DNA of 64,000 bases from Armatimonadota bacterium (GTDB lineage Bacteria > Armatimonadota > HRBIN16): contig OY781964.1 in assembly GCA_963677485.1 (NCBI GenBank), positions 2,624,001 through 2,688,000 of the forward strand, read 5' to 3'. A program made the translations under genes and the position numbers. The number at the start of each line of letters is the position of its first letter. Position 1 is the first letter of the stretch. The notes beneath the pieces are model-generated. The model was not told where the DNA came from. It made no database searches and worked only from the letters and a program-made list of their open reading frames with translations. Below, in pieces: positions 12,154 through 28,412 of this stretch.

Positions 12154-12186
12154 AAGCTCCGTGGACAACATCCACGGAGCTTTGTT
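12154..12186 (+). terminator. Putative intrinsic terminator after ftsZ
   Basis: Perfect 12-bp stem AAGCTCCGTGGA/TCCACGGAGCTT, 5-nt loop, T-rich tail. Confidence 0.7.
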
Positions 12187-12207: not shown

Positions 12208-12672
12208 ATGTTAGCATCTGATCTGTTTTTCAACGGAAGCCGATACGCCATCTTCGGCGTGCGATCCCCCGGACGTGCGCACGGCCCCATACTGATAGCC
12301 GCGTTGCGGAAAGCAGGCAAAACGGTGGCAGCCATTGAGCCCGAAGGTACCTTGGTGAAGGGTGCCGAGGTTTACCCCACACTGGCCGCCGCCGGTGCGG
12401 TGGATGGAGTGGTGCTGCTGCCCCCCTCGCCATGGACTGACTCCAGTGCTGAGTGGACGGTGCAGGCATTGCAGCAGTGCCTGCAGAATGGGCTGAGCAG
12501 CGTGTGGATCTACCCCGACGGTAGCGTGCCGCAGGCGGCTGAGTTGGCAAGTCGCCTTGGTTTGGATGCGGTGATTGGGGTTTGCCCCTGCCTGTACATC
12601 GCCGGCGGCGGGTTCCCGCATAACCTGCACCGCTGGATCGTTGGCTGGCACCGGAAGAAGTCAGGAGTGTAG
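12208..12672 (+). CDS. CoA-binding domain protein (YccU-like)
   Basis: YAIFGV...VYPTLAA..VDGVV...VWI...CP pattern; GGAGG RBS upstream. Confidence 0.7.
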   Translation: MLASDLFFNGSRYAIFGVRSPGRAHGPILIAALRKAGKTVAAIEPEGTLVKGAEVYPTLAAAGAVDGVVLLPPSPWTDSSAEWTVQALQQCLQNGLSSVWIYPDGSVPQAAELASRLGLDAVIGVCPCLYIAGGGFPHNLHRWIVGWHRKKSGV

Positions 12673-12679
12673 GAGGGAA

Positions 12680-12980
12680 TCTCTCACGCGGAGACGCGGA
12701 GGACACAGAGTCGGAGGGGTAGGACTCCCCCCATCTGCGACATCTGCGAAATCTGTGTATTTACCAGCCCTTCGCGCCTTTGCGTTAATATACCCACCAT
12801 CCGCGTTCAATCGTGTTTATCCGTGGTTTACTGATCAACATCCACTCGGTCAAAGACCCTTCGCGCCTTCGCGTCTTCGCGTGAGACTTCTCGCCACCGG
12901 TCGTCACCTAATCTGCGTCATCTGTGTAATCTGTGGATGAATTTATCTCATTCGCGTCTTCGCGTCTTCGCGTGAGACCA
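12680..12980. repeat. Cluster of short 8-9-bp-periodic intergenic repeats
   Basis: CTTCGCG(C/T)CTTCGCGTGAGA, ATCTGCG..ATCTG(C/T)G..ATCTGTG and related motifs; the same motifs recur near 22490, 30000-30120, 32400-32550, 48070, 50010 and 58620. Confidence 0.7.
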
Positions 12981-13093
12981 TCAACCTACCTCGCCACGAA
13001 ACGGTTTGTAGGATAATATGAGTATAGGATATTCAGGGTGCGACGGCACCGGCGTTGGTGATCGAAACTAGCACCCACAGGGGAGGCTCGGCG

Positions 13094-14056
13094 ATGGGAT
13101 TTGCACGCGCTTACATCAAGTCGATGCGGCTGTATTACGCCTTCATTACGGGCATAGCGGGCTGGGTCGGGGTCTCCTTCTACCATTGGCTGATGCCTGG
13201 GCATGTGGACTACACCCGCAGCACCATCATCCTGGTGATGCTCTTCCTAAGCTGGGGCATCAACCAGATTTTCAACGACTACCTGGGGTTACCAGAAGAC
13301 CGCATCAACGCGCCAAACCGGCCGATGGTGACCGGTGAGCTGAACGCCAAGCCCGCGTTGTGGCTCTCCTCGGTACTGCTGCTGGGGGTGCTGGCGATAT
13401 CCTACGCCCTCAACCCGCTGTCGATGATTCCTGTGGTCGTCGGCGTGCTGCTGAACATTTTATATGAATACGCCAAGGCCTGGTCGCTGATCGGCAACGT
13501 CGTGTTCGGGCTCTCGATCTCGATGTGTTCGCTCTACGGCTTTTTCGCGGCGGGTCCGACCCCTGATCCCATCTTCACCCCAAACCGCGTCAGCGTACTG
13601 ATCCTGGTAGCCTTGCTGAATGGACTGATGACCTATTTCACCTACTTCAAAGACTACTACGGTGACAAATCCGCCGGCAAGCGCACCTTCATCGTGAAGC
13701 ACGGTCTGAAGATAGCCCGCAAAGTGGGCGTGATCGGCGCTTTCCTGCCGACGGTGACTTTCCTGTTGATGGTCTCCTTTGGCATGATGGCGGCCAAAGA
13801 TATCCTGTATATGCACCAATTTGTGTATTGCGGCTTGATGACCCTGTTCCTGCAGGTCTGGACGGCGGTATTATACTATCGCAGCCCGGTGGGCGAGCCG
13901 ACCTACTTCAGCCTGGTCACGAACATCCGTGCGTGTGTGGCGGGGATGGTCACCTTGATCGCTATCTTCAACGGTACGCTGGCGCTGTATCTTCTCTCCG
14001 CGAGCTACATCTTCATCGGGTTCCTGTTCGACCTGTATAAGGACGCGAAGTCATGA
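13094..14056 (+). CDS. UbiA superfamily prenyltransferase
   Basis: Multiple TM helices; NDYLGLPEDRINAPNRPMVTG and FKDYYGD Asp-rich motifs; GGGAGG RBS before ATG 13094. Confidence 0.88.
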   Translation: MGFARAYIKSMRLYYAFITGIAGWVGVSFYHWLMPGHVDYTRSTIILVMLFLSWGINQIFNDYLGLPEDRINAPNRPMVTGELNAKPALWLSSVLLLGVLAISYALNPLSMIPVVVGVLLNILYEYAKAWSLIGNVVFGLSISMCSLYGFFAAGPTPDPIFTPNRVSVLILVALLNGLMTYFTYFKDYYGDKSAGKRTFIVKHGLKIARKVGVIGAFLPTVTFLLMVSFGMMAAKDILYMHQFVYCGLMTLFLQVWTAVLYYRSPVGEPTYFSLVTNIRACVAGMVTLIAIFNGTLALYLLSASYIFIGFLFDLYKDAKS

Positions 14057-15336
14057 GCCATTACGTCACAGGCATCAAGAAGCAACTGATCTACGCCGCC
14101 ATCGCGCTGACGGTGGCGGTGAGATACGCTCTGCGGCCCAAGCTGTTCGGATGGTCGCCTGTGGCGTATGCGCGGTTCCTCACTCGGGCGTCAGTGCTGC
14201 TGCTTGCGTTCCGCCACAACAAGCTCGTACGGGTTCGCACAGGCTCCAAGCTGCACCTCTATCTGCCGGCGTTCCCCACCCCCGCATTCTTTTATGCGAT
14301 TGAGAGTAAATTGATCCGCACCCCCGCCCGAGCCACCACCGTGGTTTACTCGATGACCAAAGCGTGCAGCTACCACTGCGAGCACTGCTATCAGCGCAGG
14401 GATGGCGGTCCAGACCTGGACGAAGAGCTGCTGCTGAGCACTGCGAAGACCATTCAAGAGAACGGCGTGGCGTTGTTCGACATCGAGGGCGGTGAGCCGC
14501 TTGCACGCTACGACCGTCTGTTGCGGCTGGTTCAGGCGCTTGACAGCCGATCGGAGATATGGATCAACACCGTCGGGGCCGGTCTGACAACCGAAATGCT
14601 GACCGAGTTAAAAGGGGCCGGGCTGTTCGGGCTGATGGTCTCTGTGCACTCGCCAGATTCCTCCATACACGATGCCTTTACTGGCGTTCCTGGTTCCTTT
14701 GATGTGGCCTGCCAGGCGTTACGGCTCTGCCGTGAGACCGGCGTCGCCAGCAGCGTGAACTGCGTGCTTTCGGAGGCTGATGTGCGCAGCGGTGGACTCT
14801 CCAGGCTGATGGATATGGCCAAGGAGCTGGAGGCCGATTATGTTCAGTTGATCCACCCCAAACCGGCAGGCAAGTGGCTGGGTAAGCAGACCGAGATGCT
14901 GCTGGACCCCGAGCTCATCGCGTTGATCCGTCAGGAGCATATACGCTACAACAGCTCTGCGATGCACGACTACCCCTCACTCGCGGCGCAGGTTTTCGAG
15001 GAGTCTGAGACGATGCTGGGATGCACCTGCGGCGGCATCGACCGGTTCTACGTGAACGCCACGGGAGAGGTGCAGCCCTGCGAGTTCCTGAACCTGTCGT
15101 TTGGTAACGTGCAGGATGAGCCGTTTGATGACATCTACCACCGTATGAGAGAGTATTTCCAGACACCCGGCTGCAACTGGCTCTGCTGCACGCAGGCGCA
15201 GGCGATCGATGAACTGTTCCGACAGAACGGCTTGACCCGCACGCCGCTGACCCCTGAGATCACGCTGCAACTGATGCAGAACCTCGACCCAGGTCAGCCG
15301 ACGCCGTTATACAAAAAGCTGGGCATCTATAAGTGA
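14053..15336 (+). CDS. Radical SAM protein with SPASM/twitch-like C-terminus
   Basis: CSYHCEHC motif, GGEP, C-terminal CTCGG...GEVQPCEF...CNWLCC. Confidence 0.92.
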   Translation: MSHYVTGIKKQLIYAAIALTVAVRYALRPKLFGWSPVAYARFLTRASVLLLAFRHNKLVRVRTGSKLHLYLPAFPTPAFFYAIESKLIRTPARATTVVYSMTKACSYHCEHCYQRRDGGPDLDEELLLSTAKTIQENGVALFDIEGGEPLARYDRLLRLVQALDSRSEIWINTVGAGLTTEMLTELKGAGLFGLMVSVHSPDSSIHDAFTGVPGSFDVACQALRLCRETGVASSVNCVLSEADVRSGGLSRLMDMAKELEADYVQLIHPKPAGKWLGKQTEMLLDPELIALIRQEHIRYNSSAMHDYPSLAAQVFEESETMLGCTCGGIDRFYVNATGEVQPCEFLNLSFGNVQDEPFDDIYHRMREYFQTPGCNWLCCTQAQAIDELFRQNGLTRTPLTPEITLQLMQNLDPGQPTPLYKKLGIYK

Positions 15337-16250
15337 GTTATTTGTTGATCATGAACCCCGGCTCACGCTCCGGCAAGGGCCAACGACTGTGGCAGCACTG
15401 GGAAACCGCACTGCAGGCGGCTGGGGCTGATTATACCTGCTCTTATACAAAGGGCATCGGCCATGCGGTAAGCCTGGCGCGCGAATCCCAGGCCAGCACA
15501 GTGGTGGCGGTCGGCGGAGACGGCACCATCAACGAGGTGCTGGATGGAGTGATGCAATCGGGTAACCCGGAGCTTCAGATGGGGGTGCTCTATTCGGGTA
15601 CCAGTCCCGACTTCTGCCGGTTTCATGGCATCCCTATCGAGCCTCAGAAGGCGGTGGCGGCACTGCTCGTTGGCCATGTCCGAAAAGTCGATGTGGCGCG
15701 GATCGAGTACCACGACGTGGAAGGCAAGGCGGTGACCGCCCATTTTGGGTGTAGTTGCAACATCGGGATGGGTGCGTCGGTGGCCCGATATGCCAACATG
15801 TGGCGCCGTTATCTCGGCGATATTCTGGGTACAGGCGCGGGGGTGATCCGCACCATCGCCACGAATGCCCGACTGGATACCGAGCTGGAGATCGATGATG
15901 TGCCGCAGCAACTGTCGGCCGTCAACCACCTGACTGTCGCCAAGAACCCCTATATCGCCTCCGGGCTGAAGGTCGATGTCGATCTCAAGCCAGATGACGG
16001 GAAGCTGGTGCTGATCGGCATCCATGGCAAGAGCCGCCTCGGCATACTCGCCATGGTGCCCAGCTTTTACTCCGGTTCCGTGGCGAACGTCAGAGGGGTG
16101 ATCCTCACCGAGGCGCATACAGTATGCATCCGCGCCAAGGGCGCGCAGGAGATCGAGTTTGACGGTGACCCGCGCGGCTACCTGCCCGCTCAGATCACGC
16201 TGCTCCCCAAAGCTCTGAGCTTAATAGGAGGCCAGGATGAACGAAGCTGA
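15333..16250 (+). CDS. Diacylglycerol/sphingosine kinase family lipid kinase
   Basis: MNPGSRSG, GGDGTINEV, DDGKL and EFDGD motifs. Confidence 0.88.
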   Translation: MSYLLIMNPGSRSGKGQRLWQHWETALQAAGADYTCSYTKGIGHAVSLARESQASTVVAVGGDGTINEVLDGVMQSGNPELQMGVLYSGTSPDFCRFHGIPIEPQKAVAALLVGHVRKVDVARIEYHDVEGKAVTAHFGCSCNIGMGASVARYANMWRRYLGDILGTGAGVIRTIATNARLDTELEIDDVPQQLSAVNHLTVAKNPYIASGLKVDVDLKPDDGKLVLIGIHGKSRLGILAMVPSFYSGSVANVRGVILTEAHTVCIRAKGAQEIEFDGDPRGYLPAQITLLPKALSLIGGQDERS

Positions 16251-17220
16251 GATCATCCGCTGTTTTTCGTCCGCGTTTACCCGCAGCCCACTGCAGCGCA
16301 ACGGCCTGTTCGAGTGCGATGCGGAGATCATCAGTATCGGCGATCAGCTTTGGGCACTCACCATGGACGAGTTCACGCCCGATGAGGACCTGTTCAGCTC
16401 CGAATTCCCGCAAACACTCGGGGCGAACCTGGCGGTGGCAACCATCAGCGACTTGCTCGCGGCCGGGGCCACGCCGACCTGGTTTATGCACGCCGTTTCG
16501 CTGCCGAAGTCGGTAGATAATAACTTCGTGGCGGGCCTCGCAGAGGGTATCCGCCGCGTATTGAAACAGGCAAGCTGCCAGCTCTGCGGCGGCGATATCG
16601 GCTGTGCGGAAACCTGGCGGTATTGCGGACATGCGATGGGTCCAGTGCCAGGCAACCGACCGCTGACGCGGGTGCTGCCCCGCACACAGCAAAAGCTGTG
16701 GGTGACTGGTCAGCTAGGCGATGCCAACCTGGCGGCGCTTTCGGGTTCGCCAACCCCCAGCTTCGAGTTGCGGTTGGCCGAATCCCTGGCGTTCCGGGAG
16801 CTGGCGACCGGCTGCATTGACACCAGCGGAGGCTTCTTTGATGCGCTGTGGACACTGCACTCGTTGAACCCCTCTTTAGAAATGGAGATCGAGCTCGACG
16901 CCTTGCCCCTGGCTTCAGGGCTCGTTGAGGCATCCCATGCCCTCGGGTTTCCCGCTGACGCAGCCCTGCTGGGAGGTGCTGGAGAATACGAGCTGCTGTT
17001 CGCATTGCCCTCGAAGCTCACACCGCCAGAGGGTGTGGCGACCTGCGTCGGCACCATAAGGCCTGATGGCGAAGCTGGGATCCGCCTCAACCGCGAAGGC
17101 GCCCTGCTCAGCGAAATGGACACACCGCCACCCTGCCCGCGCGATGCCGCCACGGTGGCCCAACACGTCCAAGAGGTGATGCAGATGGCGCATCGGCTGT
17201 TCGGGAAGGTCGCCAGATGA
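16237..17220 (+). CDS. ThiL/AIR-synthase-related (PurM superfamily) protein
   Basis: TISDLLAAGATP, LCGGD, VTGQLG, CIDTSGG and GEYELLF motifs; divergent from canonical ThiL. Confidence 0.75.
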   Translation: MNEAEIIRCFSSAFTRSPLQRNGLFECDAEIISIGDQLWALTMDEFTPDEDLFSSEFPQTLGANLAVATISDLLAAGATPTWFMHAVSLPKSVDNNFVAGLAEGIRRVLKQASCQLCGGDIGCAETWRYCGHAMGPVPGNRPLTRVLPRTQQKLWVTGQLGDANLAALSGSPTPSFELRLAESLAFRELATGCIDTSGGFFDALWTLHSLNPSLEMEIELDALPLASGLVEASHALGFPADAALLGGAGEYELLFALPSKLTPPEGVATCVGTIRPDGEAGIRLNREGALLSEMDTPPPCPRDAATVAQHVQEVMQMAHRLFGKVAR

Positions 17221-18449
17221 TGGAGCCACAGCAGACGCTCTTCTCGGAGCTGAAGCTCCAACACATCACCCTGCCCAACCGGCTGGTGAGGTCTGCCACC
17301 TACGAAGGGCTGGCCGAAGCCGATGGAACCCCAAAACCGGAACTGGCGGAACTCTACTGCGATCTGGCGCGTGGCGGCGTGGGCACCATCATCACCGGCT
17401 TCGTCTATACCTCGCAGCAGGGGCGCGCGATGCACCCGGCTCAGTGCGGCATCGACTGCGACGCGAAAATCATCCCATGGCGTCAGATCGTGAAGCGCGT
17501 CCGGGCGGCCAACCCCAGCACGAAACTGATCATGCAGCTCGCGCATACCGGTCGGCAAACCCAGGCGCAGGTCACCGGTCAGCCTGTAGTCGGTGCCTCC
17601 TCACGAGCTTGCAGTTATTTCCGGCAGCGTGTCCGCACGCTGGACGAGAAAGCCATAATGGGCATCATTCAAGAGTTCGCCGAGGACGCCTGTCGCGCCA
17701 AGCAGGCCGGATTCGACGGCGTGCAGATACACGCGGCACATGGCTACCTCATCCACCAGTTCCTTTCACCCTGGACCAACAACCGCAAAGACCGCTGGTC
17801 CGATCGCCCCCTGCTGCTGGAGAAGGTCATCACTGCGGTGCTGGAAGCCTGCGGTGAGCAGTTCCCCATCCTGCTGAAGCTGAGTTCGTCCGAGGACCGC
17901 TCACCGGGTATCCGAGTGGAGCAGACCATCGAGACAATCCAGCGGCTTAAGGCACTCCACATCGACGCGGTGGAGATCAGCTATGGCACGATGGAGTATG
18001 CGTTGAATATCATCCGCGGCGACGTGCCTGTGGCTGCGGTGCTGAAGGTCAACCCGATGTTCCGCCGCGTGCCGAAATTGATCCAGGGCCTGTGGAAGAG
18101 ATACTGCGCGCCGGCTTACATCCGCAAGTTCATCCCCTTCACGGAAAACTACAACCTGCAGGATGCTCTGCGCATCCGCACCGAAACGGGAATGCCCGTA
18201 CTGGCGGTCGGCGGGATCAGGTCACTCGAGAGTATGATCAGCATGGTGGGGGAGATGGGCATTGATGCCGTCTCGCTGTGTCGCCCGCTGATCTACGAAC
18301 CCGATCTGCCAAACCGGATACTGGACGGCCGCTTCACACGCTCCCAATGCACCAACTGCAATCTGTGTGCCATCTATTGCGACAGCCGGCAGCCGCTGCG
18401 CTGCCATCGACAGAAAAGGACAGGTCAAAGCGTTGAAAGAGACAAATGA
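17217..18449 (+). CDS. NADH:flavin oxidoreductase (old yellow enzyme family)
   Basis: LPNRLVRSATYE, MQLAHTGRQ, GFDGVQIHAAHGYLIHQFLSP..N.R.D and C-terminal CTNCNLC motifs. Confidence 0.92.
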   Translation: MMEPQQTLFSELKLQHITLPNRLVRSATYEGLAEADGTPKPELAELYCDLARGGVGTIITGFVYTSQQGRAMHPAQCGIDCDAKIIPWRQIVKRVRAANPSTKLIMQLAHTGRQTQAQVTGQPVVGASSRACSYFRQRVRTLDEKAIMGIIQEFAEDACRAKQAGFDGVQIHAAHGYLIHQFLSPWTNNRKDRWSDRPLLLEKVITAVLEACGEQFPILLKLSSSEDRSPGIRVEQTIETIQRLKALHIDAVEISYGTMEYALNIIRGDVPVAAVLKVNPMFRRVPKLIQGLWKRYCAPAYIRKFIPFTENYNLQDALRIRTETGMPVLAVGGIRSLESMISMVGEMGIDAVSLCRPLIYEPDLPNRILDGRFTRSQCTNCNLCAIYCDSRQPLRCHRQKRTGQSVERDK

Positions 18450-19695
18450 ACCCTCCGGACAGTTCGAAAACTACCTGCCGACAGACGGCCAGGCTGACAT
18501 CTTTGCGAAGGTAGATGCCGTCGCCGACTACCTGGAGGCACACCACTCGGATTATACCGAGGGGCTGGGCATTCAGATGCTGGGCCCGATTGGCCCCAGG
18601 ACGATGGTGCGTGAGCCCAATGGTGATGCCCATGAGGTGATCATGCTTGGCTCAAACTCCTATCTGTCACTCACCACCCATCCGGCTGTGGTGGCGGCGT
18701 CGAAGGCCGCGGTCGACCGATACGGCTACGGCATGGGTGCGGTCTCGCTCTACGCGGGCACCACCGATCTGCATAAGGAGCTGGAGCACTCCATCGCCGC
18801 GTTCTACGGCACCGAAGATGCCATCATCATCCCGTGTGGTTACTCCGCCAACGTGGGCGTGATAGCCAGCCTTTGCGGTCCGGGTGATGTGATCATCTGC
18901 GATGCGTATAACCACGCCTCCATTTTCGACGGCTGCAAGTTGTCGGGGGCCACGGTGAAGATATACCTGCACCGCAACATGAAACACCTGGAGAAGATAC
19001 TCAGGTCGCTGCCGGAGTCGCAAGCAGGCCGGCTGATCATCACCGACGGGGTGTTTTCCATGGATGGCGACCTGGCCACACTGGATGAGATCACCGCGTT
19101 GGCGGAGAAATACGGCGCGCGGGTGATGGTGGATGATGCCCATGGTGTTGGGGTGGTGGGACCCACCGGGCGCGGAAGTGCGGAGGCGCACGGCTGCCTT
19201 CAGAAGATAGACATTAACCTGGGCACGCTCAGCAAAACCCCGGGCGCGCTGGGCGGTTACGTGGCGGGCAGTGCGCGGTTGATACAGTATCTGCGGCTGT
19301 ATACCCGCACCTATTTCTTTTCCACCAGCCTGCCGCCATCGGTGGTGGGCGGTCTGGTGGAGGTGTTCAAGATGCTTCAGGCGGACACGGCAGGCCGCGA
19401 CAGGCTCTGGCACAATGTGCGCTACATGCTCAGCTCCCTGAAGGCGATGGGCTTTGACACCGGCGATTCGCAGTCGGCGATCATCCCCATCATGGTGGGC
19501 GATGAGGATATCCTGGGCAAGTTCAACAACGAGCTGCGCCGGCGTGGGGTTTACACCAATGTGGTCACCTACCCGGCGGTGCGGCGCAAGGAGTGCCGGC
19601 TGCGGCTGTGTATCATGAACTCGCTGACTCAGGCGGATATGGACGAGGCACTGGCGATCATGCAGCAACTCGGCCATAAATACGGGCTGATCTAG
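18433..19695 (+). CDS. PLP-dependent alpha-oxoamine synthase (BioF/Kbl/serine palmitoyltransferase family)
   Basis: GSNSYL, NHASIFDG, DGVFSMDGD, DDAHG and GTLSK motifs; start uncertain (TTG 18433 after AAAGGA). Confidence 0.9.
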   Translation: MKETNEPSGQFENYLPTDGQADIFAKVDAVADYLEAHHSDYTEGLGIQMLGPIGPRTMVREPNGDAHEVIMLGSNSYLSLTTHPAVVAASKAAVDRYGYGMGAVSLYAGTTDLHKELEHSIAAFYGTEDAIIIPCGYSANVGVIASLCGPGDVIICDAYNHASIFDGCKLSGATVKIYLHRNMKHLEKILRSLPESQAGRLIITDGVFSMDGDLATLDEITALAEKYGARVMVDDAHGVGVVGPTGRGSAEAHGCLQKIDINLGTLSKTPGALGGYVAGSARLIQYLRLYTRTYFFSTSLPPSVVGGLVEVFKMLQADTAGRDRLWHNVRYMLSSLKAMGFDTGDSQSAIIPIMVGDEDILGKFNNELRRRGVYTNVVTYPAVRRKECRLRLCIMNSLTQADMDEALAIMQQLGHKYGLI

Positions 19696-20732
19696 TGCGC
19701 TCGGTGCTGATTACCGGAGCGGCTGGGTTCATCGGCGGTTACACGGTAGATGAGTTCGTCAACGCGGGTTGGCATGTCTACGCGCTTGTCCACAACTCCG
19801 TCACGCCCGGGTTGGAGCAGATGGCGGCTTCGGGTGATGTCACGCTGATCCGCGGCGACCTCACGCAGTTCGCGGCGTTTGAAGCCAGCCTGCAGCACGA
19901 GTTGGAGCGTCGCGATGAGAAGCTTGATGCGGTGGTTCACTGCGCTGGCAGGGCCTCCGATGTTGGCCGTCGGCACGAGTTCCGTGGATTGAATTACGAA
20001 TCGGTGCTGAAGCTGGGTGAGCTCTCGCTGCGCCTGGAGGTCGGGCGGTTCGTGTTCATCTCCACCACCGATGTCTACGGCTTGCGCGACTTCCACGGCG
20101 AAACGGAGACGGAGTTGCCGCTGCAGAACAACCGGCACAACCCGTATCCTGAGTTCAAAATCGCCGCTGAGGGGTGGATTCGGGCTCATATACACGCTGA
20201 GCGGTATGTCATCATCCGGCCCGCCGCGGTATGGGGTGTGGGTGATCCGACGCTGAGCCCGCGGATCGTGGATTTCTTGCGCAGCTCCCCTTGGATTATC
20301 CACTTCGGCAAGTGGCGAGGCCAGAACCGCTGGCCGTGTGCGTATGTGCGCAACGTGGCGAAAGCGATCCTGCTGGCCGTCACCAGGACCGAGGCGGCTG
20401 GGCGAGCGTTCAACATACTCGACTCGGAGCATACCACGATGGACGAGTTCTATCGTATTCTGGCCTCGATTGCCCTGCCGGAGAAGCAGTTTCGATCCGT
20501 CACACTGCCGCTGTGGGTGGGTCAGGCCATTGGCGGGGTGGTGTCCGGTATCTCGGATGCGTTGAACCTGAACCACCCGTTCACCGACCCCAGCCTGTAT
20601 GCGCTGTATTCTGTGTCCAGCCATCTGGATTTTAGCAACGCCGCGTTTCTGGAGCTGCTGGAAGGAGCTGGTCAAACTATCCTAAGCCGTGATGAGGGAA
20701 TCGAAGAACTGAAGAGGAGTGTCGAAAGATGA
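19695..20732 (+). CDS. Extended SDR (NAD-dependent epimerase/dehydratase, 3-beta-HSD-like)
   Basis: TGAAGFIG, HCAG, YPEFK (YxxxK) and IIRPAAVWG motifs. Confidence 0.88.
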   Translation: MRSVLITGAAGFIGGYTVDEFVNAGWHVYALVHNSVTPGLEQMAASGDVTLIRGDLTQFAAFEASLQHELERRDEKLDAVVHCAGRASDVGRRHEFRGLNYESVLKLGELSLRLEVGRFVFISTTDVYGLRDFHGETETELPLQNNRHNPYPEFKIAAEGWIRAHIHAERYVIIRPAAVWGVGDPTLSPRIVDFLRSSPWIIHFGKWRGQNRWPCAYVRNVAKAILLAVTRTEAAGRAFNILDSEHTTMDEFYRILASIALPEKQFRSVTLPLWVGQAIGGVVSGISDALNLNHPFTDPSLYALYSVSSHLDFSNAAFLELLEGAGQTILSRDEGIEELKRSVER

Positions 20733-22435
20733 AGTTGCCGCTGTTTTTGTGCGTGTTATTGGCCACCGTGAGCTTTGGTGGTTTGCCGGTCGAGGCCAGC
20801 AAAGCCTCCGATCTCCACGTGAAGAGTTACGGGGCCTTGCCGGACGACGGGCTTGACGACACGAAGGCAATCCTGACCGCCCTGAGCTATTGTAAAGCCC
20901 AAAAGAGCAAACGGCTGCTGCTTGCCAGCGGCATCTATGACATCTCAGTAGGGGTAGAGAAGGAGGCTGTGTTCGATCTGGCGGGTTACCAAAACCTCAG
21001 CATGGAGGGTCATGACACCCAGTTTCTGGTGCATGGTATGGGCGGCGTATTAAAGCTTTCGAACTGCAGTAAAGTGACTATTAAAGGGTTGAGCATCGAC
21101 TACGCGTATGTCCCGTTCTCAGAGGCCAAAGTGGTGGCAGTCGATGGTCAGCACTTCGACGTGGAGTTTGCCCCGGATCGAACCTGCTTCAGCGGCATGG
21201 GCGTGATCGCTTATATGGACTTCGAGCCTGACACCCGCCTTCCTGTGCAGCATGGGATCGACGCCTACAACACGGTGATATCCACGGAGCTTGTGAAACC
21301 GCAGGTGCTGCGTCTCAACCTGAGCGATAAGGCCACCATCAAGCCCGGTAAGCTGGTGCTGCTGCGGCACTGGGTCTACAACTGTGATGCCTTTACCCTC
21401 ACAAAATGCTCGGACTTCCGTATGGAGCAGGTCACCATCTACACCGCACCAGGGATGGCGGTTCGCTCAATGGCCTGTCAGAACCTCACATTTACCAAAC
21501 TGCGGATTGTGCCCAAGCAGGGCCGGTTGATGTCCACCACGGCCGATGGGCTGCACATCATAGGCTGTAAAGGAGCTGTGACGGTCAACGGATGTGAGTT
21601 TGAGGGTATGGGCGATGATGCCATCAATATCTACCCAGGCCTCTACCTCACCGCACTGGAGAAGCCCACGGAGAGCTCCATCATCGGACGTCACAACCTG
21701 AAGATCGCCGACCCACCCGACCCCGGCGAGACCATGGAGCTGGTGCATCAAGAGACCCTGCTTCGTTACGGCACCGCCGTGGTGAAGAATATTGAGCGGA
21801 ACCCGAAGGATAAGACCTATCGGGTGGTGTTCACGAAGCCCCTGCCGGCAGAGTTCAAAATCGGCGATGTAATCTGTAACGCCACCAGACTGGCCAAAGT
21901 GCGCATATCGAACTGCTCCATCAGTAAGAACCGCGCCAGAGGGTTCCTGGTGCAGGGGCGCGACATCGAGGTGAAGAACTGCCGGTTCAATAACTGCACC
22001 TCCGGTGGCGTGTGGGTGATCCCGGAGGTCACCTTCTTCTACCAGGGAGTTGGATCACGGGATGTGGTGATCTGCGACAACCAGTTCACAAATTGCAACT
22101 ACTCGGGCCCCATTGGCGAGGGTGTGATTTCCGTGTGTGCCTATCTGAACAACTTTGGATACCCCACAATACCGGGCGTGCATCGGAATATCCGAATTGA
22201 GAACAACACCATCAATGGCTCGGATAACTCCGGCATTTTCATTACTGGGGTGGATGGCCTGAGGATCACCGGCAACACGCTGACCAACGTCTGCCGGAAG
22301 CCCACCTGGCCCACGGGAGTATCCGCGGTCCACATCCAGGGCAGCCGAAAGGTGACGATGCGTGGCAACACCATCGACGAATCCGCACAGGGAGCGGGCA
22401 TGAAGACCGTCCTGCGTGAGGTCCAATCCGACTGA
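20729..22435 (+). CDS. Secreted right-handed parallel beta-helix protein, GH110-like
   Basis: Signal peptide, YGALPDDGLDDT, STTADGLH, GMGDDAINI and NRARGFLV motifs, repeated IENNTI-type strands. Confidence 0.75.
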   Translation: MKLPLFLCVLLATVSFGGLPVEASKASDLHVKSYGALPDDGLDDTKAILTALSYCKAQKSKRLLLASGIYDISVGVEKEAVFDLAGYQNLSMEGHDTQFLVHGMGGVLKLSNCSKVTIKGLSIDYAYVPFSEAKVVAVDGQHFDVEFAPDRTCFSGMGVIAYMDFEPDTRLPVQHGIDAYNTVISTELVKPQVLRLNLSDKATIKPGKLVLLRHWVYNCDAFTLTKCSDFRMEQVTIYTAPGMAVRSMACQNLTFTKLRIVPKQGRLMSTTADGLHIIGCKGAVTVNGCEFEGMGDDAINIYPGLYLTALEKPTESSIIGRHNLKIADPPDPGETMELVHQETLLRYGTAVVKNIERNPKDKTYRVVFTKPLPAEFKIGDVICNATRLAKVRISNCSISKNRARGFLVQGRDIEVKNCRFNNCTSGGVWVIPEVTFFYQGVGSRDVVICDNQFTNCNYSGPIGEGVISVCAYLNNFGYPTIPGVHRNIRIENNTINGSDNSGIFITGVDGLRITGNTLTNVCRKPTWPTGVSAVHIQGSRKVTMRGNTIDESAQGAGMKTVLREVQSD

Positions 22436-22600
22436 TCCGTGAAGCCGACTGGTGTATAGGCTATCCGCTAACAGACGTGGCCATGTGTCCTTCGCGTCTT
22501 CGCGTCTTCGCGTGAGATGATACCCCTTTCATGGGTAAGGGCAGGGATTTCCCTCGTCTTTGGTGAAATAGGTACTATTATGATGCCAAAGGAGTCAAAT

Positions 22601-23869
22601 ATGCGCATAGGAACAATCATCATCAGCAGCTTACTGCTTGCCGGTCTGGCAGCGGCCACTCAGGCCGCTAAGGAGAACCCGTATACGGCCGGACGTGTCA
22701 ACGCCCGTGATTTCATCATCCTGCCCTGGGGCGGAATGCCCGATCTGGACAAAACCAGCGACCCTTGGCTGAAGGGCTTCTGGGGAAGCACCCATGACAT
22801 GGACGCCACGATGAAGGATCTGTGGGAGTGCGGCTTCAACGCCACCGGGTTTGCCCCGATATCCACACTGAAGTATGCAGAGAAATATGGCCTTGGGGTC
22901 ATCACTTCGGACAACCCCATCAGGGAAAAGATGACCGATGAGCAAGCCGCTGATGCGGTGAAAAAGCTGATCGCCTCCGCCAAAGGCAGTCCGGCACTGA
23001 TCGGGGTCAACCTGCGCGATGAGCCGCTGCCTTCGGATTTCCCGTGGCTGTCGTTCATGGTAAAGGCGGTGCGCAAAGCCGACCCCAAACTGCTGCCGTA
23101 TATTAACCTATATCCCAGCACGATGGCCTTCCCGTTTTTCGGCTGCACTAGCTATGGCGACTACGTAGATCAGTTCGTCAAAGGCTGCAGCCCCTCATTC
23201 CTCAGCTATGACAACTACTCGATGGTGGAAGGTGCTAGCTTTTTAGACGACCAGTTCTATGCCAACCTGGAAGATATGCGCAAGAAGTCGCTGGAGTATA
23301 ACCTGCCGTTTTGGAATATCATCCTCGGCAACTGCCACTTCACGTATGCTCAGCCCACTCAAGCCACCATCAACGTGCAGGCCTTTTCCAGCCTGGCTTA
23401 CGGTGTGCGCGGCCTGTCCTACTTCACCTACTATGCGCCGATCTCAGGTAACTACCGGCTGGCGGCGGTCGACCAGTTTGGCAAACGGACGGACACCTGG
23501 GACTACATCCGGTCGGTGAACTACCAGATACATAAGCTGGCCCCGACCTATCTCAAGCTGAAAAGCGTGAATGTGTTCCACACCAACGGCAAACTGCCCC
23601 GACTGTGCCAGGGGATCGAGACCAGCAAGTATCTGAACAAGGTGGATGGCCGAAACCTGCTGGTGGGTGAGTTCGCCGGGCCAGATAACACGCCCTATAT
23701 CATCGTGGTGAACAAGAGCATCACCAACAGCACCTCATTCGGCGTGGAGTTCAAAGAGAAGGGCACCATCAAGTGCGTGAACGCCTACCGCGGCAACGTG
23801 GTTGACCATACTGGGGAGAACGTGTTCCTGGCCCCTGGTCAGGGCATGATGCTGTTTTTGCAGAAGTAA
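22601..23869 (+). CDS. Secreted putative glycoside hydrolase-like protein (paralog 1 of 3)
   Basis: Signal peptide; LRDEP, YINLYP, SYDNY and LAYGVRGLSYFTY motifs; GGAG RBS. Confidence 0.7.
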   Translation: MRIGTIIISSLLLAGLAAATQAAKENPYTAGRVNARDFIILPWGGMPDLDKTSDPWLKGFWGSTHDMDATMKDLWECGFNATGFAPISTLKYAEKYGLGVITSDNPIREKMTDEQAADAVKKLIASAKGSPALIGVNLRDEPLPSDFPWLSFMVKAVRKADPKLLPYINLYPSTMAFPFFGCTSYGDYVDQFVKGCSPSFLSYDNYSMVEGASFLDDQFYANLEDMRKKSLEYNLPFWNIILGNCHFTYAQPTQATINVQAFSSLAYGVRGLSYFTYYAPISGNYRLAAVDQFGKRTDTWDYIRSVNYQIHKLAPTYLKLKSVNVFHTNGKLPRLCQGIETSKYLNKVDGRNLLVGEFAGPDNTPYIIVVNKSITNSTSFGVEFKEKGTIKCVNAYRGNVVDHTGENVFLAPGQGMMLFLQK

Positions 23870-23938
23870 ACATCCCGCAGGATGATAAGATAATTGCGAT
23901 TTAGAGCGGTGCAGGTAAACTGCACGAGGAGGTCGGCA

Positions 23939-25207
23939 ATGCGGATCGGAACCATATTGATAAGCAGCTTACTACTGGCAAGCCTGGCAGTGGGCTCTCA
24001 AGCCAAAAAGGAGGACAATGTGTACACAACCGGACGTGTCAACGCGCATGATTTCATGATTTTCCCATGGGGCAGCATGCCCGCGGAGGGCGAAATCGGC
24101 AGCTATATGCCGGAAGGCCCCGCGGGGAAGAAGCCCAACTGGGACAGCACCATGAAGGATCTGTGGGAGTGCGGCTTCAACGCCACCGGCTTCACCAGCC
24201 TGGATGCCCTCCCCACCGCGAAAAAGTATGGTCTTGGGGTGTTTGCTCAGAACAACCCCATGAACCCGCAGATGACGGAGGAGCAGGCGGTTCAGGCCGT
24301 CAAGAAGCTGCTGGATTCTTGCCACAACGACCCGGCTCTGCTGGGCATCTACATCCGCGATGAGCCCAACTCCGCGGATTTCCCGCATTTGGCGATGATG
24401 TCCCGAGCCACGCAGAAGGCCAGCAAAACCCTGCTGCCATACCTGAACCTGCTGCCCGACTACGCCACCAATGGGCAACTGGGCGCCGAAAGCTACGGTG
24501 AATACATCGACAAGTTCGTGAAGACCTGCAGCCCCGTGTTCCTGAGTTATGACAACTACTCGCTCTTCGAGGGCACTGGACTCAATGAGGACCGATTTTA
24601 CTCCAACCTGGAGTCGATGCGGGCCAAAGGACTGCAGCACAACCTGCCCTTCTGGAACATCGTGCTGGGCAACTGCCACTTCGAGTACCAGGAGCCTTCA
24701 CAGGCTACCATCAACGTGCAGGTATGGTCAAGCCTGGCGTATGGTGCCCGCGGCATCAGCTACTTCACCTACTATGCGCCGCTGATCGGCAACTACCGGT
24801 CGGCGTCGATCGACCAGTTCGGGTTCCGCACCAAGACCTGGGGCTACATCCAGCATATGAACTACCAAATTCACAAACTGGCACCCATCTATCTCAAGCT
24901 GAAGAGCGTGAATGTGTTCCACACCGGCTACATGCCCAAAGGCAGCCAGGGGTTGGAGAGCAGTCACTACCTCAGCGGCATCGAGGGTAAGAACCTGCTG
25001 GTGGGTGAGTTCATGGGGCCGAATCAGCAGCAGTATGTGCTCGTGGTAAACAAGAGCACCACCAACAGCACCTGGTTCAACCCCGCTTTCAAGGATAAGG
25101 GCACTGTCATGTGCGTGAACGCATACCGCGGCATCGAGTGGGGATTTACGGGCGAGAACCTGTACCTGGCCCCCGGCCAGGGGATGCTGCTGTATCTGAA
25201 GAAGTAG
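23939..25207 (+). CDS. Secreted putative glycoside hydrolase-like protein (paralog 2 of 3)
   Basis: Colinear with 22601-23869 (IRDEP, SYDNY, LAPGQGMLL); GAGGAGG RBS. Confidence 0.7.
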   Translation: MRIGTILISSLLLASLAVGSQAKKEDNVYTTGRVNAHDFMIFPWGSMPAEGEIGSYMPEGPAGKKPNWDSTMKDLWECGFNATGFTSLDALPTAKKYGLGVFAQNNPMNPQMTEEQAVQAVKKLLDSCHNDPALLGIYIRDEPNSADFPHLAMMSRATQKASKTLLPYLNLLPDYATNGQLGAESYGEYIDKFVKTCSPVFLSYDNYSLFEGTGLNEDRFYSNLESMRAKGLQHNLPFWNIVLGNCHFEYQEPSQATINVQVWSSLAYGARGISYFTYYAPLIGNYRSASIDQFGFRTKTWGYIQHMNYQIHKLAPIYLKLKSVNVFHTGYMPKGSQGLESSHYLSGIEGKNLLVGEFMGPNQQQYVLVVNKSTTNSTWFNPAFKDKGTVMCVNAYRGIEWGFTGENLYLAPGQGMLLYLKK

Positions 25208-25702: not shown

Positions 25703-26756
25703 AGTGCCACCTGCGAGATCATCTTAATACGTAATCTACTCCCGCTTGATATCACTATACGCTATCGTTTCATGGCTGTCAAAAGCACGCACATCCCCGT
25801 CGTAACAACCGATCGACCGGACGGGGGTAGGGTATCGTGGACTTTTCCAGGGGTTTCGCTGCGCTCACCCCTGGCTGTAAATCGAGTAGGCGGGCTGTTA
25901 CCCCCGCCTCTCACACCACCGGACGTGCCATTTATGGCATCCGGCGGTTTCTACCCTGTTATCTCAGACTACACCCATGCGCAAGAGCTGGAACTCCAAT
26001 AAACCTAAACCACTGATTGTCCATGGCGTAGTGCGATGGTTTCGACTTCGATATATGCCACCATCCCTTGGATGACCCTGCTAGAGCCCGTGCGGCCCAG
26101 TCGCTCACATACCGCGACCGCAGGAAGTAATATATACCTGACGCCACCTTACACTGTTTCAGTCTGTAACAACGGACCCGTCTTCGGACCCAGCCGTCCA
26201 GACCTTCAAACAGGCTCTTCGACCAATTCAACTTAAAGTAGTGATACCACCCTATAAGAAACTGGCGAAGCTCCCGACATATCATCCACAAAGCACGGCC
26301 TCGGTTGCGTGATGAGATTTCGCGGATTTTCTCGTGGAATTTCACAACACTCTGAGGAGATACTTCCAGTCTTCCGTCCCGAAGGATACGGTAGCTTAGA
26401 AACTTGCGCTGATCCACCACGTCCACTGCACTCTTCTTGGCATTCACCACCAGCTTCAACCTCTTCTGAAGAAACTGCGTGATCGAGGTCATCACCCGTT
26501 CGCCAGCAACCTGACTGCGCACATATATGTTGCAGTCATCGGCATAGCGGCAGAAGCGGTGGCCTCGCTTTTCGAGTTCCTTGTCGAGTTCATCGAGCAG
26601 GATGTTGGACAGCAAAGGAGACAGTGGGCCGCCCTGGGGCGTCCCCTCATCCGATGACACGCACACGCCCTCCTGCATCATGCCAGCCGTAAGAAAACGG
26701 CGGATGAGCCGAAGAACTGTCTTGTCAGTGATACGTCGAGATAACCGTTCCATTAG

Positions 26757-28412
26757 TATCTTACCAACCATATTTTGAACACGGTGTATAGAATATTCTG
26801 ATATTACGCACCACACAAAGCGTTAGGCACAACGATCTGGCGAATAGCAAGTGCTGCCATGATGATACGCTTGCCAAGTGCAGTGAGGTAGTATTTGTAG
26901 CGTTTACCGCATTTTTTAACGAGCCGGAATACTCGGCATCGCTTGATGAAGTATGATATCTGAGAGCTGGACATCTGCGGTAAGGCTTTTTGAAGCATAC
27001 GGTTTGTGATCCCGCTGATGCATCCCTCTCCGCGAGCAAGTGCAATGAGACATTCCAAATCCTTCTTGAGGAAAAGGTTGAATCCTCGATACGAGCGATG
27101 ATCACGGGTGGTCGAGGTCGCGATTTTGATGATCTGATGTTCACCATCGCTGTTGTCATCAAGGGCGGAAAGAAAGTCAAGATATCTGTTGTTTGCAGAT
27201 AATAACAGTTCCCTCAATGGAGGAAGGCTGTAGATGGTCTTTTGCATAGGGGCGTATTTAATCTCAGTCGTCCCATCATGATGTTCTACCTCACGGTAGT
27301 GTTTAAATTCAGAGACGTCATTCACAGTCGTCTCGATACGCAAGATTATCCCTTGCTTGTCATACATTTTGATAGAAGCCCATCCCATGTAGTGTTTGAT
27401 GCGCGTGCCTTGTATGCGGCGATCGAACTTGTAGTCAGTGCCGATCTCAGCGAGTGTTCGCCCATCAAGTTTCTTACCAAGAAACATCGCGATAGACTCT
27501 GGCGTTACCGTATGTATCGCTGTTTTGACTAGATTATCGTAGATGGCTTTGAGGTCTTCGGCGCGTTTGAACACGATGTCTGTAGCATATTCCACCTGCA
27601 TTAGCGACCAATGATATGAATTGTCAGCAAGCCGTATCACGGGGCAATACATTCTGGCAAATGCATCCAGCGCATGGTGCAGCTTATCAGCAGGAAAAGC
27701 GTCTGCCAGCCTCTGAGCACAGCTAAAGTCGTCGATTTTTACAAAGGCGTTGTCCAGTGGAGTGAAAACTACTCCCTCGGATTGAAGGCAATGCGCGAGA
27801 TAATTGTGTCCATTACAATAGAATTGCAGACGGAAGGGCACCCAGGTCGGAACTCGTAGATAGCACAGTCCAAACTCTGCATCGATGAAATAGAAGTAGT
27901 AATGAAGACACTTGGTCTCCTTGATATTCAGCCGGGTTTTGTGGGTAATCTTGTCGTGCCACGGGGTGTATGCAGGACATTTTTCCAACACTGAGAATAT
28001 GTGGACGAGACCGGGGTGACACCCTCGACTACTAATGATCTCTTTGATGCGGTCTTCTTTTCGAAATGAAGAGGCACGGCGTATATACTCAATTTCAATG
28101 CTGTTGGTAACGGCAAGGCGTTCCGCATTGGCTTTGATCTCATCTCGTAGAGGTTCGGCAAATTCCTTAGGAAAGTCAAATAGCCTGATGTTGCGTTGAT
28201 GAAGATAGATGCCCATTCCGTCGCTATGACACCAGCCTGGGATTGTACCGGTGATAACTATGCGGTCGAAGCATGAATATACCCCAGCTATCTGCTTTGC
28301 ATAGCGTTCTTGAAGTGATGTCATTCTGGGCAACCTCACGAAAGGGTGTTTGAATGTATATTACGTGGCGAATGCAATCATTCCTTTTTTGGTTGCGGCT
28401 AAGCCGCCTTAG
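26757..28412 (-). mobile_element. Unclassified 1656-bp insertion element
   Basis: Flanked by TTAG at 26753-26756 and 28409-28412; exact removal restores the RT frame; no terminal inverted repeats; palindrome GCGGCTAAGCCGC at 28395-28407. Confidence 0.9.
26804..28324 (-). CDS. Putative transposase of the unclassified element (Rep-like core plus C-terminal winged HTH)
   Basis: Single ORF filling the element; HYYFYFID, QVEYATDIVF, IKMYDKQGIILRIETT motifs; C-terminal wHTH-like segment (...YKYYLTALG). Confidence 0.7.
   Translation of the reverse strand: MTSLQERYAKQIAGVYSCFDRIVITGTIPGWCHSDGMGIYLHQRNIRLFDFPKEFAEPLRDEIKANAERLAVTNSIEIEYIRRASSFRKEDRIKEIISSRGCHPGLVHIFSVLEKCPAYTPWHDKITHKTRLNIKETKCLHYYFYFIDAEFGLCYLRVPTWVPFRLQFYCNGHNYLAHCLQSEGVVFTPLDNAFVKIDDFSCAQRLADAFPADKLHHALDAFARMYCPVIRLADNSYHWSLMQVEYATDIVFKRAEDLKAIYDNLVKTAIHTVTPESIAMFLGKKLDGRTLAEIGTDYKFDRRIQGTRIKHYMGWASIKMYDKQGIILRIETTVNDVSEFKHYREVEHHDGTTEIKYAPMQKTIYSLPPLRELLLSANNRYLDFLSALDDNSDGEHQIIKIATSTTRDHRSYRGFNLFLKKDLECLIALARGEGCISGITNRMLQKALPQMSSSQISYFIKRCRVFRLVKKCGKRYKYYLTALGKRIIMAALAIRQIVVPNALCGA

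Follow-up and report, generated by a model that had tools for sequence, protein, structure and literature searches.

What do seven enzymes make when they are encoded in one tightly packed run, each from a well-known superfamily and none, as judged by sequence comparison, in a characterised orthologue group? The question is raised by a locus of an Armatimonadota bacterium (assembly GCA_963677485.1, contig OY781964.1), of which we analysed a stretch of 64,000 nucleotides (nt) of the forward strand (positions 2,624,001 to 2,688,000; hereafter the window). Seven open reading frames (ORFs) on the + strand, at 13055-20732, form an operon of about 7.7 kb and encode a UbiA-family transferase, a radical S-adenosylmethionine (SAM)/SPASM enzyme, a YegS-type kinase, a ThiL-like protein, an old yellow enzyme (OYE), an α-oxoamine synthase (AONS) and an extended short-chain dehydrogenase/reductase (SDR). 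The operon probably makes an uncharacterised lipid or lipid-anchored molecule. Because the set has stayed whole in its passage among at least nine phyla, its product appears to be something specific and useful.

Organisation of the operon

The seven genes are arranged as follows.

13055..14056, + strand: membrane transferase of the UbiA family; ORF from TTG 13055, with the first ATG at 13094
14053..15336, + strand: radical SAM enzyme whose auxiliary-cluster domain is of the SPASM/twitch type; N-terminus extended by about 95 amino acids (aa)
15333..16250, + strand: soluble lipid kinase of the DAGK/YegS/BmrU type; Pfam DAGK_cat and YegS_C
16237..17220, + strand: ThiL-like ATP-dependent enzyme of the PurM superfamily; Pfam AIRS
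17217..18449, + strand: OYE-type flavin mononucleotide (FMN) ene-reductase; four-cysteine Fe-S motif at the C-terminus; Pfam Oxidored_FMN
18433..19695, + strand: pyridoxal phosphate (PLP)-dependent AONS; start probably TTG 18433, ORF opens at GTG 18367
19695..20732, + strand: extended epimerase-fold SDR, probable keto-reductase; Pfam Epimerase and 3Beta_HSD

An original prediction, made from the letters of the window, had named these seven enzymes, and indeed all are encoded by ORFs on the + strand and each carries the Pfam domain stated for it. The start that it gave for the operon is the first ATG of the UbiA gene, whereas the ORF itself opens upstream at the TTG. It had also described every junction as an overlap of start and stop codons. 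All six junctions do overlap: by 4 nt between the UbiA and radical SAM genes (ATGA), the radical SAM and kinase genes (GTGA) and the ThiL-like and OYE genes (ATGA), by 14 nt between the kinase and ThiL-like genes, and by 1 nt between the AONS and SDR genes (TAGTG). The description fails in one detail at the OYE/AONS junction, where the ATG at 18446, which overlaps the OYE stop codon, is out of frame with the AONS. The overlap there amounts to 17 nt from TTG 18433 or 83 nt from GTG 18367, and the TTG is the preferred start because the ORF of the nearest orthologue opens there.

Pfam and NCBIfam scans of 12208-25207 found no acyl carrier protein (ACP), no N-acyltransferase and no bio or thi gene, in accordance with the predicted absence of a ceramide synthase, an ACP and other biotin or thiamine genes from the cluster.

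Conservation of the gene set

We retrieved 78 loci from contigs of one genome per species by alignment of 18 ThiL-like homologues, and scored them by tblastn with the window proteins at a coverage of at least 50%. The seven genes are present in the window's order and on one strand in 34 of the 78 loci, an arrangement that is thus far from chance. By NCBI label, these complete loci belong to Verrucomicrobiota (7), Lentisphaerota (7), Elusimicrobiota (5), Kiritimatiellota (4), Planctomycetota (2), and Melainabacteria, Pseudomonadota, Thermodesulfobacteriota and Auribacterota (1 each), with 5 unlabelled, so that nine phylum labels are represented in all. All seven genes are also intact in a cultured bacterium, Elusimicrobium posterum Dip510 (L046). 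Seven further loci have six genes, the OYE gene being missing or a fragment under 50% coverage; the OYE is optional in the family. Another 13 loci follow a second, reordered arrangement, here called the nine-gene form. Among the other 24 loci, 21 are truncated by a contig end and show the canonical order in part, L020 has only the ThiL-like gene, at a contig start, and L063 and L077 have another order. The original prediction had made its case depend on conservation of the cluster elsewhere, and these counts show such conservation. The seven genes appear, from their conserved order, to act as one unit.

The kinase gene lies directly upstream of the ThiL-like gene in all 76 loci that have both, across three gene orders, and the two ATP-using enzymes are probably coupled. 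Two fusions were found among metagenomic proteins, one of the ThiL-like protein to the OYE (P0271, 727 aa) and one of the lipid kinase to the ThiL-like protein (P0272, 676 aa). Since there is one example of each, they may be merges of overlapping genes arising from sequencing or gene-calling errors.

The nine-gene form, as found in an Omnitrophota locus (L068:4898-14598), encodes in order a MarR-type regulator, UbiA, OYE, an ACP of 82 aa, AONS, kinase, ThiL-like protein, a ketoacyl synthase, SDR and radical SAM enzyme. The MarR-type gene opens this form in L068 and 12 similar loci, and an ORF of about 129 aa, which matches nothing in Pfam and whose cluster includes 10 loci, stands just after the radical SAM gene. 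A third order is found at L077:5681-16149, which encodes kinase, ThiL-like protein, SDR, an ORF of no known family, a STAS protein, radical SAM enzyme and UbiA, and has neither AONS nor OYE. The internal ORF of L077 is 243 aa long and has no Pfam match, and a Ser/Thr kinase of 1107 aa with WD40 repeats is encoded upstream.

When the flanking ORFs were clustered, the seven-gene form showed no additional recurrent gene; the remaining clusters were antisense or frame shadows. No polyprenyl synthase, glycosyltransferase or flippase recurs in the 78 loci, and no ceramide synthase or N-acyltransferase recurs in the seven-gene loci.

Family assignment and conserved motifs

We judged NCBIfam scores against the curated equivalog cut-offs, and we quote motifs as conserved when they are kept in at least 93% of orthologues. 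All seven proteins score below every NCBIfam equivalog cut-off. The enzymes look active, because their catalytic motifs are conserved (CxxxCxxC of the radical SAM enzyme, GGDGT of the kinase, the aspartates of the ThiL-like protein, the HxxH, tyrosine and four cysteines of the OYE, YxxxK of the SDR and the PLP lysine of the AONS). Only the UbiA protein has transmembrane segments (nine hydrophobic segments); the other six have none.

The UbiA protein matches Pfam UbiA with 95.5 bits. Its best NCBIfam matches are models of archaeal-type prenyltransferases and digeranylgeranylglyceryl phosphate synthase (DGGGPS), at 62-77 bits against cut-offs of 269-353; for the DGGGPS models themselves the scores are 62.6 against 353 and 62.0 against 296, so that the protein falls outside DGGGPS proper. 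Its sole sequence match in the PDB is a DGGGP synthase (6m31, E 3e-11). Two acidic motifs, NQIxNDYxGLxEDRINAPxRPMV and TYFKDxxGD, are kept in 66 orthologues.

The radical SAM protein exceeds the cut-offs of Pfam Radical_SAM (61.9 bits, cut-off 29.5) and SPASM (26.6 bits, cut-off 21.5), which places it among radical SAM/SPASM enzymes. Its best NCBIfam models, GeoRSP, NirJ2 and AhbD, give about 100 bits against cut-offs of 400-500, and its nearest PDB chains are SkfB and BlsE (E about 3e-7); no PDB sequence match to tetraether synthase was obtained at E ≤ 0.001. C105, C109 and C112 (CxxxCxxC) are kept in 71 orthologues together with C324, C343 and C378. Because only these three later cysteines reach the conservation threshold, the protein may equally have one auxiliary cluster, of the twitch-like kind, or two. 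A membrane anchor for the radical SAM enzyme was considered and dropped, a hydrophobic N-terminal segment being present in only 6 of 70 orthologues.

The kinase exceeds the cut-offs of DAGK_cat (90.5 bits) and YegS_C (69.3 bits) and scores 92.4 against the cut-off of 118.65 for TIGR00147 (YegS/Rv2252/BmrU). Its nearest PDB chain is DgkB (2qv7, E 5e-13), and GGDGT is kept in 75 orthologues.

The OYE matches Oxidored_FMN with 153.7 bits (cut-off 27). Its nearest PDB chains are OYEs of the YqjM type and 2,4-dienoyl-CoA reductase (1ps9), and its best family model is a mycofactocin-system oxidoreductase, for which it is below the cut-off. H172, H175 and Y177, which we take to be the catalytic triad of YqjM-type enzymes, are kept in 59 orthologues, as are C378, C381, C384 and C396 (CxxCxxC...C), and the protein belongs among the OYE-type ene-reductases.

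The SDR matches Epimerase with 103.7 bits and 3Beta_HSD with 62.5 bits. Its best NCBIfam model is the 2-alkyl-3-oxoalkanoate reductase OleD, which acts on a long-chain 3-oxo-lipid, at 88 bits against a cut-off of 580. Its PDB matches are GalE-type chains only (E ≥ 3e-8), and threonine dehydrogenase is not among them at E ≤ 1e-5. TGxxGxxG and YxxxK are kept in 59 orthologues. In addition, the SDR is 24-31% identical to SDRs that adjoin genes for an ACP and a protein like serine palmitoyltransferase (SPT) in Alphaproteobacteria.

The ThiL-like protein

The ThiL-like protein matches Pfam AIRS with 50.9 bits and scores 110.5 against the cut-off of 184.15 of the thiL equivalog. Its match to ThiL in the PDB has an E of 4e-12 by sequence and of about 1e-21 by profile. 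With an AlphaFold2 model (pLDDT 89), Foldseek returns Aquifex ThiL first (TM-score 0.69-0.72) and then HypE (0.67-0.70), and the modelled fold is nearly as close to PurM and SelD as to ThiL. The model would thus give the protein a PurM-superfamily fold with the aspartates that bind ATP and Mg. All 76 orthologues keep D28, D44, D72, D120 and D195, which correspond to these metal- and ATP-site residues. A C-terminal tail with an invariant R302 is specific to the family, and AGEYELLF is also conserved. A catalytic C-terminal cysteine like that of HypE (PPPCPR motif) was considered and dropped: the cysteine is kept in close relatives only, and R302 alone is conserved.

The protein resembles ThiL in its predicted fold and in the invariant aspartates, and differs from it in its score (110.5 against 184), in reading, in the seven-gene form, D-T-S-G-G rather than D-x-S-D-G, in the C-terminal tail and in always following the lipid kinase. 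A ThiL that exceeds the cut-off is encoded separately in five of ten other carrier genomes (4/5 and 1/5). In the window's own genome the ThiL-like protein is the best thiL match, no match exceeds the cut-off, and the second match is HypE, next to HypD; ThiE and thiamine pyrophosphokinase are present. We regard the ThiL-like protein as a distinct family by its sequence rather than a housekeeping thiamine-phosphate kinase. The original prediction would have had to give way to a housekeeping ThiL, and both the score and the coexistence with canonical ThiL in other carriers are contrary to that. Among 1.84 billion representatives, the family comprises 208 clusters at 50% identity (E ≤ 1e-30), and its matches in the ESM Atlas are unnamed AIRS clusters only.

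Phylogeny of the oxoamine synthase

The AONS matches Pfam Aminotran_1_2 with 191 bits, and its best NCBIfam matches all belong to the Kbl/BioF/SPT class. It misses the cut-offs throughout: 389.9 against 460 and 354.8 against 493 for Kbl, 386.5 against 535 for a BioF/Kbl-related model, 360.3 against 426.45 for BioF, and 353.7 against 640 (NF047600), 326.7 against 500 (NF047599) and 289.9 against 670 (NF047603) for SPT. Its PDB matches to Kbl (1fc4, 286 bits) and SPT (3a2b, 264 bits) are about equal.

To place the protein, we built a tree of 63 sequences by a quick IQ-TREE search under LG+G4. The tree holds 32 AONS from the seven-gene form (alternate sequences and a selection of others) and 13 from the nine-gene form, as well as 5 Kbl and 6 BioF that pass their cut-offs, 6 alphaproteobacterial SPT-like sequences and 1 Kbl-related sequence. 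The seven-gene AONS form a clade of their own (32 rows, SH-aLRT 100), apart from the Kbl, BioF and SPT-like references; the comparison of SPT, BioF and Kbl that the original prediction had proposed thus puts the protein outside the housekeeping clades. In this tree, which excludes Bacteroidota SPT, ALAS and CqsA, the clade is weakly sister (SH-aLRT 81) to the six alphaproteobacterial SPT-like references. The nine-gene AONS lie on a separate long branch. The SPT-like references themselves score 438-548 bits, below the model cut-off of 670. At their loci an SDR match adjoins the SPT-like gene in 5 of 6 and an ACP match in 4 of 6, an SDR-ACP-SPT arrangement that is presumably that of Caulobacter.

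Members of the clade share a conserved extension of about 45 aa at the N-terminus and, in place of the P-x-x-P of the references, have a basic lid loop, YPAVRRKECRLR; the PLP lysine and the DDAH motif are kept. No AONS paralogue was found in the window's own genome by tblastn, and the best BioB match there is 87 against a cut-off of 225. The pairing of Kbl with threonine dehydrogenase was dropped as an assignment for the AONS and SDR, since the AONS clade lies apart from Kbl and the SDR has no PDB match to threonine dehydrogenase.

AONS paralogues were also encountered in Desulfovibrionia, where most of 31 sampled genomes have 1-3 of them besides BioF, at about 320-385 bits to the bioF model. 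No UbiA, kinase or ThiL-like gene adjoins the paralogues of this kind in L100-L102 (G207, G320).

Distribution and host genome

A prevalence census on the ThiL-like family (E ≤ 1e-60, best 10 candidates per genome) found it in at least 2 of the 201 genomes sampled from the window's phylum, namely its own genome and one of the same genus; a third genome of that genus gave no match in this census. At least 3 of 201 sampled genomes in the phylum of G004 have it. Carriers are mostly uncultured, largely anaerobic lineages. The cluster has a G+C content of 60.2%, against a genome mean of 54.4% (standard deviation 2.5), and 1 of 679 windows of equal size is as high. Identities across phyla are 50-70%. 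The rarity, the cross-phylum identities and the atypical G+C content together suggest that the whole operon has spread horizontally. As to plasmid carriage, a tblastn search of PLSDB gave no match.

The host genome, a single contig that is 97% complete, has three polyprenyl synthases, a separate quinone prenyltransferase of the MqnP/UbiA type and a separate gene that matches the models of decaprenyl-phosphate phosphoribosyltransferase. It gives no match to PcrB or geranylgeranylglyceryl phosphate (GGGP) synthase (GGGPS), which argues that the usual acceptor GGGP is not made.

A proposed pathway

We propose that the operon is a horizontally mobile unit for an undescribed amphiphilic amino-alcohol phosphate, assembled by sphingoid-like logic and joined to a hydrocarbon by the UbiA enzyme, and we give this reading about an even chance. 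From the gene set, its conservation, its intact motifs and its separateness from housekeeping families, we infer the chemical steps, the substrates and the product as follows. The AONS would condense an amino acid with an acyl thioester to a 2-amino-3-ketone, the acyl donor being acyl-CoA in the seven-gene form and acyl-ACP in the nine-gene form. The OYE/Fe-S reductase could then, as an optional step, saturate a conjugated C=C bond of an enone or enoyl intermediate; its intact ene-reductase triad, Fe-S motif and optional presence fit such a role. The extended SDR would reduce the ketone to the alcohol, and the YegS-type kinase would phosphorylate a hydroxyl. The ThiL-like enzyme would use ATP on that phosphate or on a neighbouring oxygen, with a diphosphate as the simplest product. 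The DGGGPS-like UbiA enzyme would couple the phospho-intermediate with an isoprenoid, either by using the intermediate as a GGGP-like acceptor of a housekeeping prenyl diphosphate or by using the newly made diphosphate itself as the donor. The former is conceivable because the genome has three polyprenyl synthases and no GGGPS, so that the intermediate could act as a GGGP mimic. Finally, the radical SAM/SPASM enzyme would carry out an oxygen-independent tailoring.

A chain of the fatty type is argued for by the nine-gene form, which adds an ACP and a ketoacyl synthase, and two proteins of the seven-gene form hint in the same direction: the SDR is nearest to OleD, and the kinase is nearest to the lipid kinases DgkB and YegS. 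The prediction of a prenyl/sphingoid-like membrane lipid stands in part. The ACP and ketoacyl synthase, together with the nearness of the SDR to OleD and to SPT-adjacent SDRs, are in keeping with its sphingoid-like part, whereas the lack of a ceramide synthase and the missed SPT cut-offs leave the operon outside the sphingolipid pathways proper. The words "membrane lipid" are uncertain, because only the UbiA enzyme has transmembrane segments and the operon is rare.

Several points weigh against the proposed amino-alcohol phosphate. The genes from which we read the steps and the product fix no step order. Six soluble proteins would fit a pathway to a soluble head group equally well as a lipid pathway, and a prevalence of about 1% argues against a core membrane lipid. 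No N-acyltransferase is encoded, so the free amine is used by no step. L077 has neither AONS nor OYE, and an origin from an amino-ketone is thus not universal. The OYE would need an activated alkene, which a plain saturated acyl donor does not provide. The ionisation of a non-allylic diphosphate by a UbiA-type enzyme is chemically unfavourable. Furthermore, the seven-gene ThiL-like protein has IDTSGG in place of the D-x-S-D-G that canonical ThiL shares with the nine-gene form, and its reaction may therefore not be the conversion of a phosphate to a diphosphate.

In a bolder version, which we hold to be unlikely but to have a real chance, the AONS and the reductases of the cluster would build a sphingoid-type alcohol, from which the kinase and the ThiL-like enzyme would form an alkyl, possibly allylic, diphosphate; this would be either the non-isoprenoid donor of the UbiA enzyme or a GGGP mimic that becomes prenylated. 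The outcome would be a new lipid class, intermediate between sphingolipids and the ether lipids of the archaeal type, and a PurM/ThiL-superfamily enzyme would have its first role in a lipid pathway. Moreover, tailoring without oxygen, by the radical SAM enzyme and the Fe-S OYE, would replace the O2-dependent desaturases and hydroxylases that aerobes use.

An amino-alcohol phospholipid that carries a prenyl or alkyl group, should the product prove to be one, would represent a new lipid class and a possible biomarker, and it would bear on the lipid divide between bacteria and archaea. The proposal, if true, would also assign functions to the ThiL-like family with its 208 clusters, to a new clade of oxoamine synthases and to a new UbiA clade.

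Comparison with known systems

The sphingolipid/ceramide-phosphate pathway of Caulobacter comprises Spt, a dedicated ACP, the epimerase-fold reductase CerR, the ceramide synthase bCerS and the DAGK-family ceramide kinase CpgB. The operon shares with it the presence in one locus of an oxoamine synthase, an epimerase-fold SDR and a DAGK-family kinase and, in the nine-gene form, a dedicated ACP. It falls outside the ceramide pathway in that its locus has no ceramide synthase or N-acyltransferase and, in the seven-gene form, no ACP, and in that its AONS lies outside the SPT-like clade and below three SPT cut-offs. Unlike sphingolipid pathways, it adds UbiA, ThiL-like, radical SAM/SPASM and OYE enzymes.

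In plants, phytol is salvaged by the phytol kinase VTE5 and the phytyl-phosphate kinase VTE6, followed by the UbiA-family VTE2 or chlorophyll synthase. By analogy, two successive kinases in the operon might likewise deliver a diphosphate to a UbiA-family transferase; the operon's kinases, however, are of families unrelated to those of the plant enzymes, and there is no evident source of a prenol.

An ether-lipid module of archaea consists of the UbiA-family DGGGP synthase and the SPASM-type radical SAM tail modifiers Tes and Gms, as described in a 2026 review of lipid radical SAM enzymes (PMC13459092). The operon is like this module in that its UbiA protein is nearest to DGGGPS and a SPASM-type radical SAM gene adjoins. 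It differs in the UbiA score (62-77 bits against 269-353), in a genome without GGGPS/PcrB, in a radical SAM enzyme without a match to tetraether synthase, and in an amino-ketone module that takes the place of the glycerol-phosphate backbone. None of the enzymes listed in the available part of that review belongs to the present cluster, and another paper mentions a different UbiA neighbourhood (PMC12419801). The original prediction had not recognised the gene combination, and we likewise found no description of the seven-gene set in the full-text literature, subscription journals and supplements being outside the search.

Alternative explanations

The confinement of transmembrane segments to the UbiA protein also suits a prenylated cofactor or quinone-like carrier, whose head group, heterocyclic or otherwise polar, would arise from an α-aminoketone through the six soluble enzymes, with the UbiA enzyme adding a prenyl tail. 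α-Aminoketones are classic precursors of pyrroles and pyrazines, PurM-type enzymes close rings with ATP, and anchoring by a UbiA-attached prenyl tail is known from the synthesis of quinones, chlorophyll and tocopherol. In the predicted structure, the ThiL-like fold resembles HypE about as much as it does ThiL, and PurM and SelD nearly as much; the best models for the radical SAM enzyme include the tetrapyrrole-modifying NirJ2 and AhbD (about 100 bits against 500); the best model for the OYE, below its cut-off, is from the mycofactocin system; and a rare, patchy distribution is what a specialised metabolite would have. We nevertheless consider such a carrier unlikely, since the UbiA protein lies closest to DGGGPS, whose acceptor is a lipid, rather than to the aromatic prenyltransferases, the kinase is in a lipid-kinase family, the nine-gene form has an ACP and a ketoacyl synthase, and the genome already has a quinone prenyltransferase of the MqnP/UbiA type. 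An activation or salvage of prenols would assign the successive formation of prenyl phosphate and prenyl diphosphate to the kinase and the ThiL-like enzyme and the interconversion of prenol, prenal and saturated prenal to the SDR and OYE, with the AONS product as the acceptor. ThiL converts a phosphate to a diphosphate and UbiA enzymes need a diphosphate donor, both of which speak for this route, as do the adjacency of the kinase and ThiL-like genes in 76 of 76 loci, the lack of a recurrent polyprenyl synthase in the 78 loci, the full ene-reductase triad of the OYE, which would suit enals, and L077, which keeps kinase, ThiL-like protein, SDR, radical SAM enzyme and UbiA without an AONS. Salvage seems unnecessary, however, where three polyprenyl synthases already supply prenyl diphosphates; no source of free prenol is encoded, and prenyl phosphates are not a known substrate of any PurM-superfamily enzyme, a point for which no search was made. 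Overall, we judge this route improbable.

Decaprenyl-phosphate phosphoribosyltransferase is a UbiA enzyme that uses the non-prenyl diphosphate donor phosphoribosyl pyrophosphate. On this precedent, the two kinases could make the 1-diphosphate of a polar amino-polyol, which the UbiA enzyme would transfer to polyprenyl phosphate to give a linked donor for decoration of the envelope. The sugar epimerase/dehydratase fold of the SDR, the weak PDB match of the radical SAM enzyme to the sugar-nucleoside decarboxylase BlsE, and an overlapping next gene for an envelope or secreted protein (a beta-helix protein here, PGA_cap in E. posterum) all point this way. Against it, the UbiA protein has no NCBIfam match at E ≤ 1e-5 to decaprenyl-phosphate phosphoribosyltransferase, for which the genome has a separate matching gene, no glycosyltransferase or flippase recurs in the loci, and oxoamine synthases are, to our knowledge, not found in sugar pathways, so that we see little prospect for an envelope donor. 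A chance juxtaposition of housekeeping genes (Kbl/BioF, ThiL, an SDR like threonine dehydrogenase, and a quinone prenyltransferase) is largely refuted and in our view has hardly any probability left. It could draw on the fact that the cluster proteins are the genome's best thiL and Kbl/BioF matches, with no second copy, and on the presence of ThiE, because of which the genome should make thiamine phosphate. It is contradicted by scores that are all under the equivalog cut-offs, an order kept in 34 loci with nine phylum labels, an AONS in its own clade, a canonical ThiL encoded separately in five of the ten other carriers, a thiamine pyrophosphokinase that offers another way to the cofactor, a genome with no BioB over the cut-off, and an SDR without a PDB match to threonine dehydrogenase.

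Flanking genes and other features of the window

Upstream of the operon lie the end of a division cluster (FtsQ-like protein, DUF881, DUF1290, FtsZ) and then a gene for a CoA-binding protein. A terminator-like hairpin follows ftsZ at 12154-12182 and is the sole strong one in the scan; the counts of the promoter and terminator scan are not above those of shuffled sequence. No Rfam match to a riboswitch or leader RNA was obtained upstream of the operon at E ≤ 0.1.

Downstream, an eighth gene is coupled to the operon, its start overlapping the SDR stop codon by ATGA:

20729..22435, + strand: secreted right-handed beta-helix protein; Pfam Beta_helix, GH28 and NosD; hydrophobic segment at the N-terminus

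This gene has a tblastn match in 1 of the 78 related loci only, the same-genus L001, and its product is a local passenger outside the conserved set. In E. posterum, a gene for a PGA_cap protein (CapA-like capsule synthesis) overlaps the end of the SDR gene (L046:14160-15350). The same position at the operon end is thus occupied by different envelope-related passengers in the two genomes.

Two tandem paralogous proteins of 450 and 437 aa are encoded next on the + strand (22517-23869 and 23894-25207). Each has an N-terminal hydrophobic segment and no Pfam or NCBIfam match. Further downstream, on the - strand, a group II intron RNA domain is matched at 25881-25949 (Rfam, 45.9 bits against 40). 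The adjoining ORF at 25959-26816 (- strand) encodes the C-terminal part of a reverse transcriptase with a maturase domain, and the N-terminal part of a reverse transcriptase is encoded by a separate ORF at 28224-29045 (- strand). Because the two parts are in separate ORFs with an ORF of 511 aa between them (26804-28339, no Pfam match), the reverse transcriptase gene of the intron looks split or interrupted.

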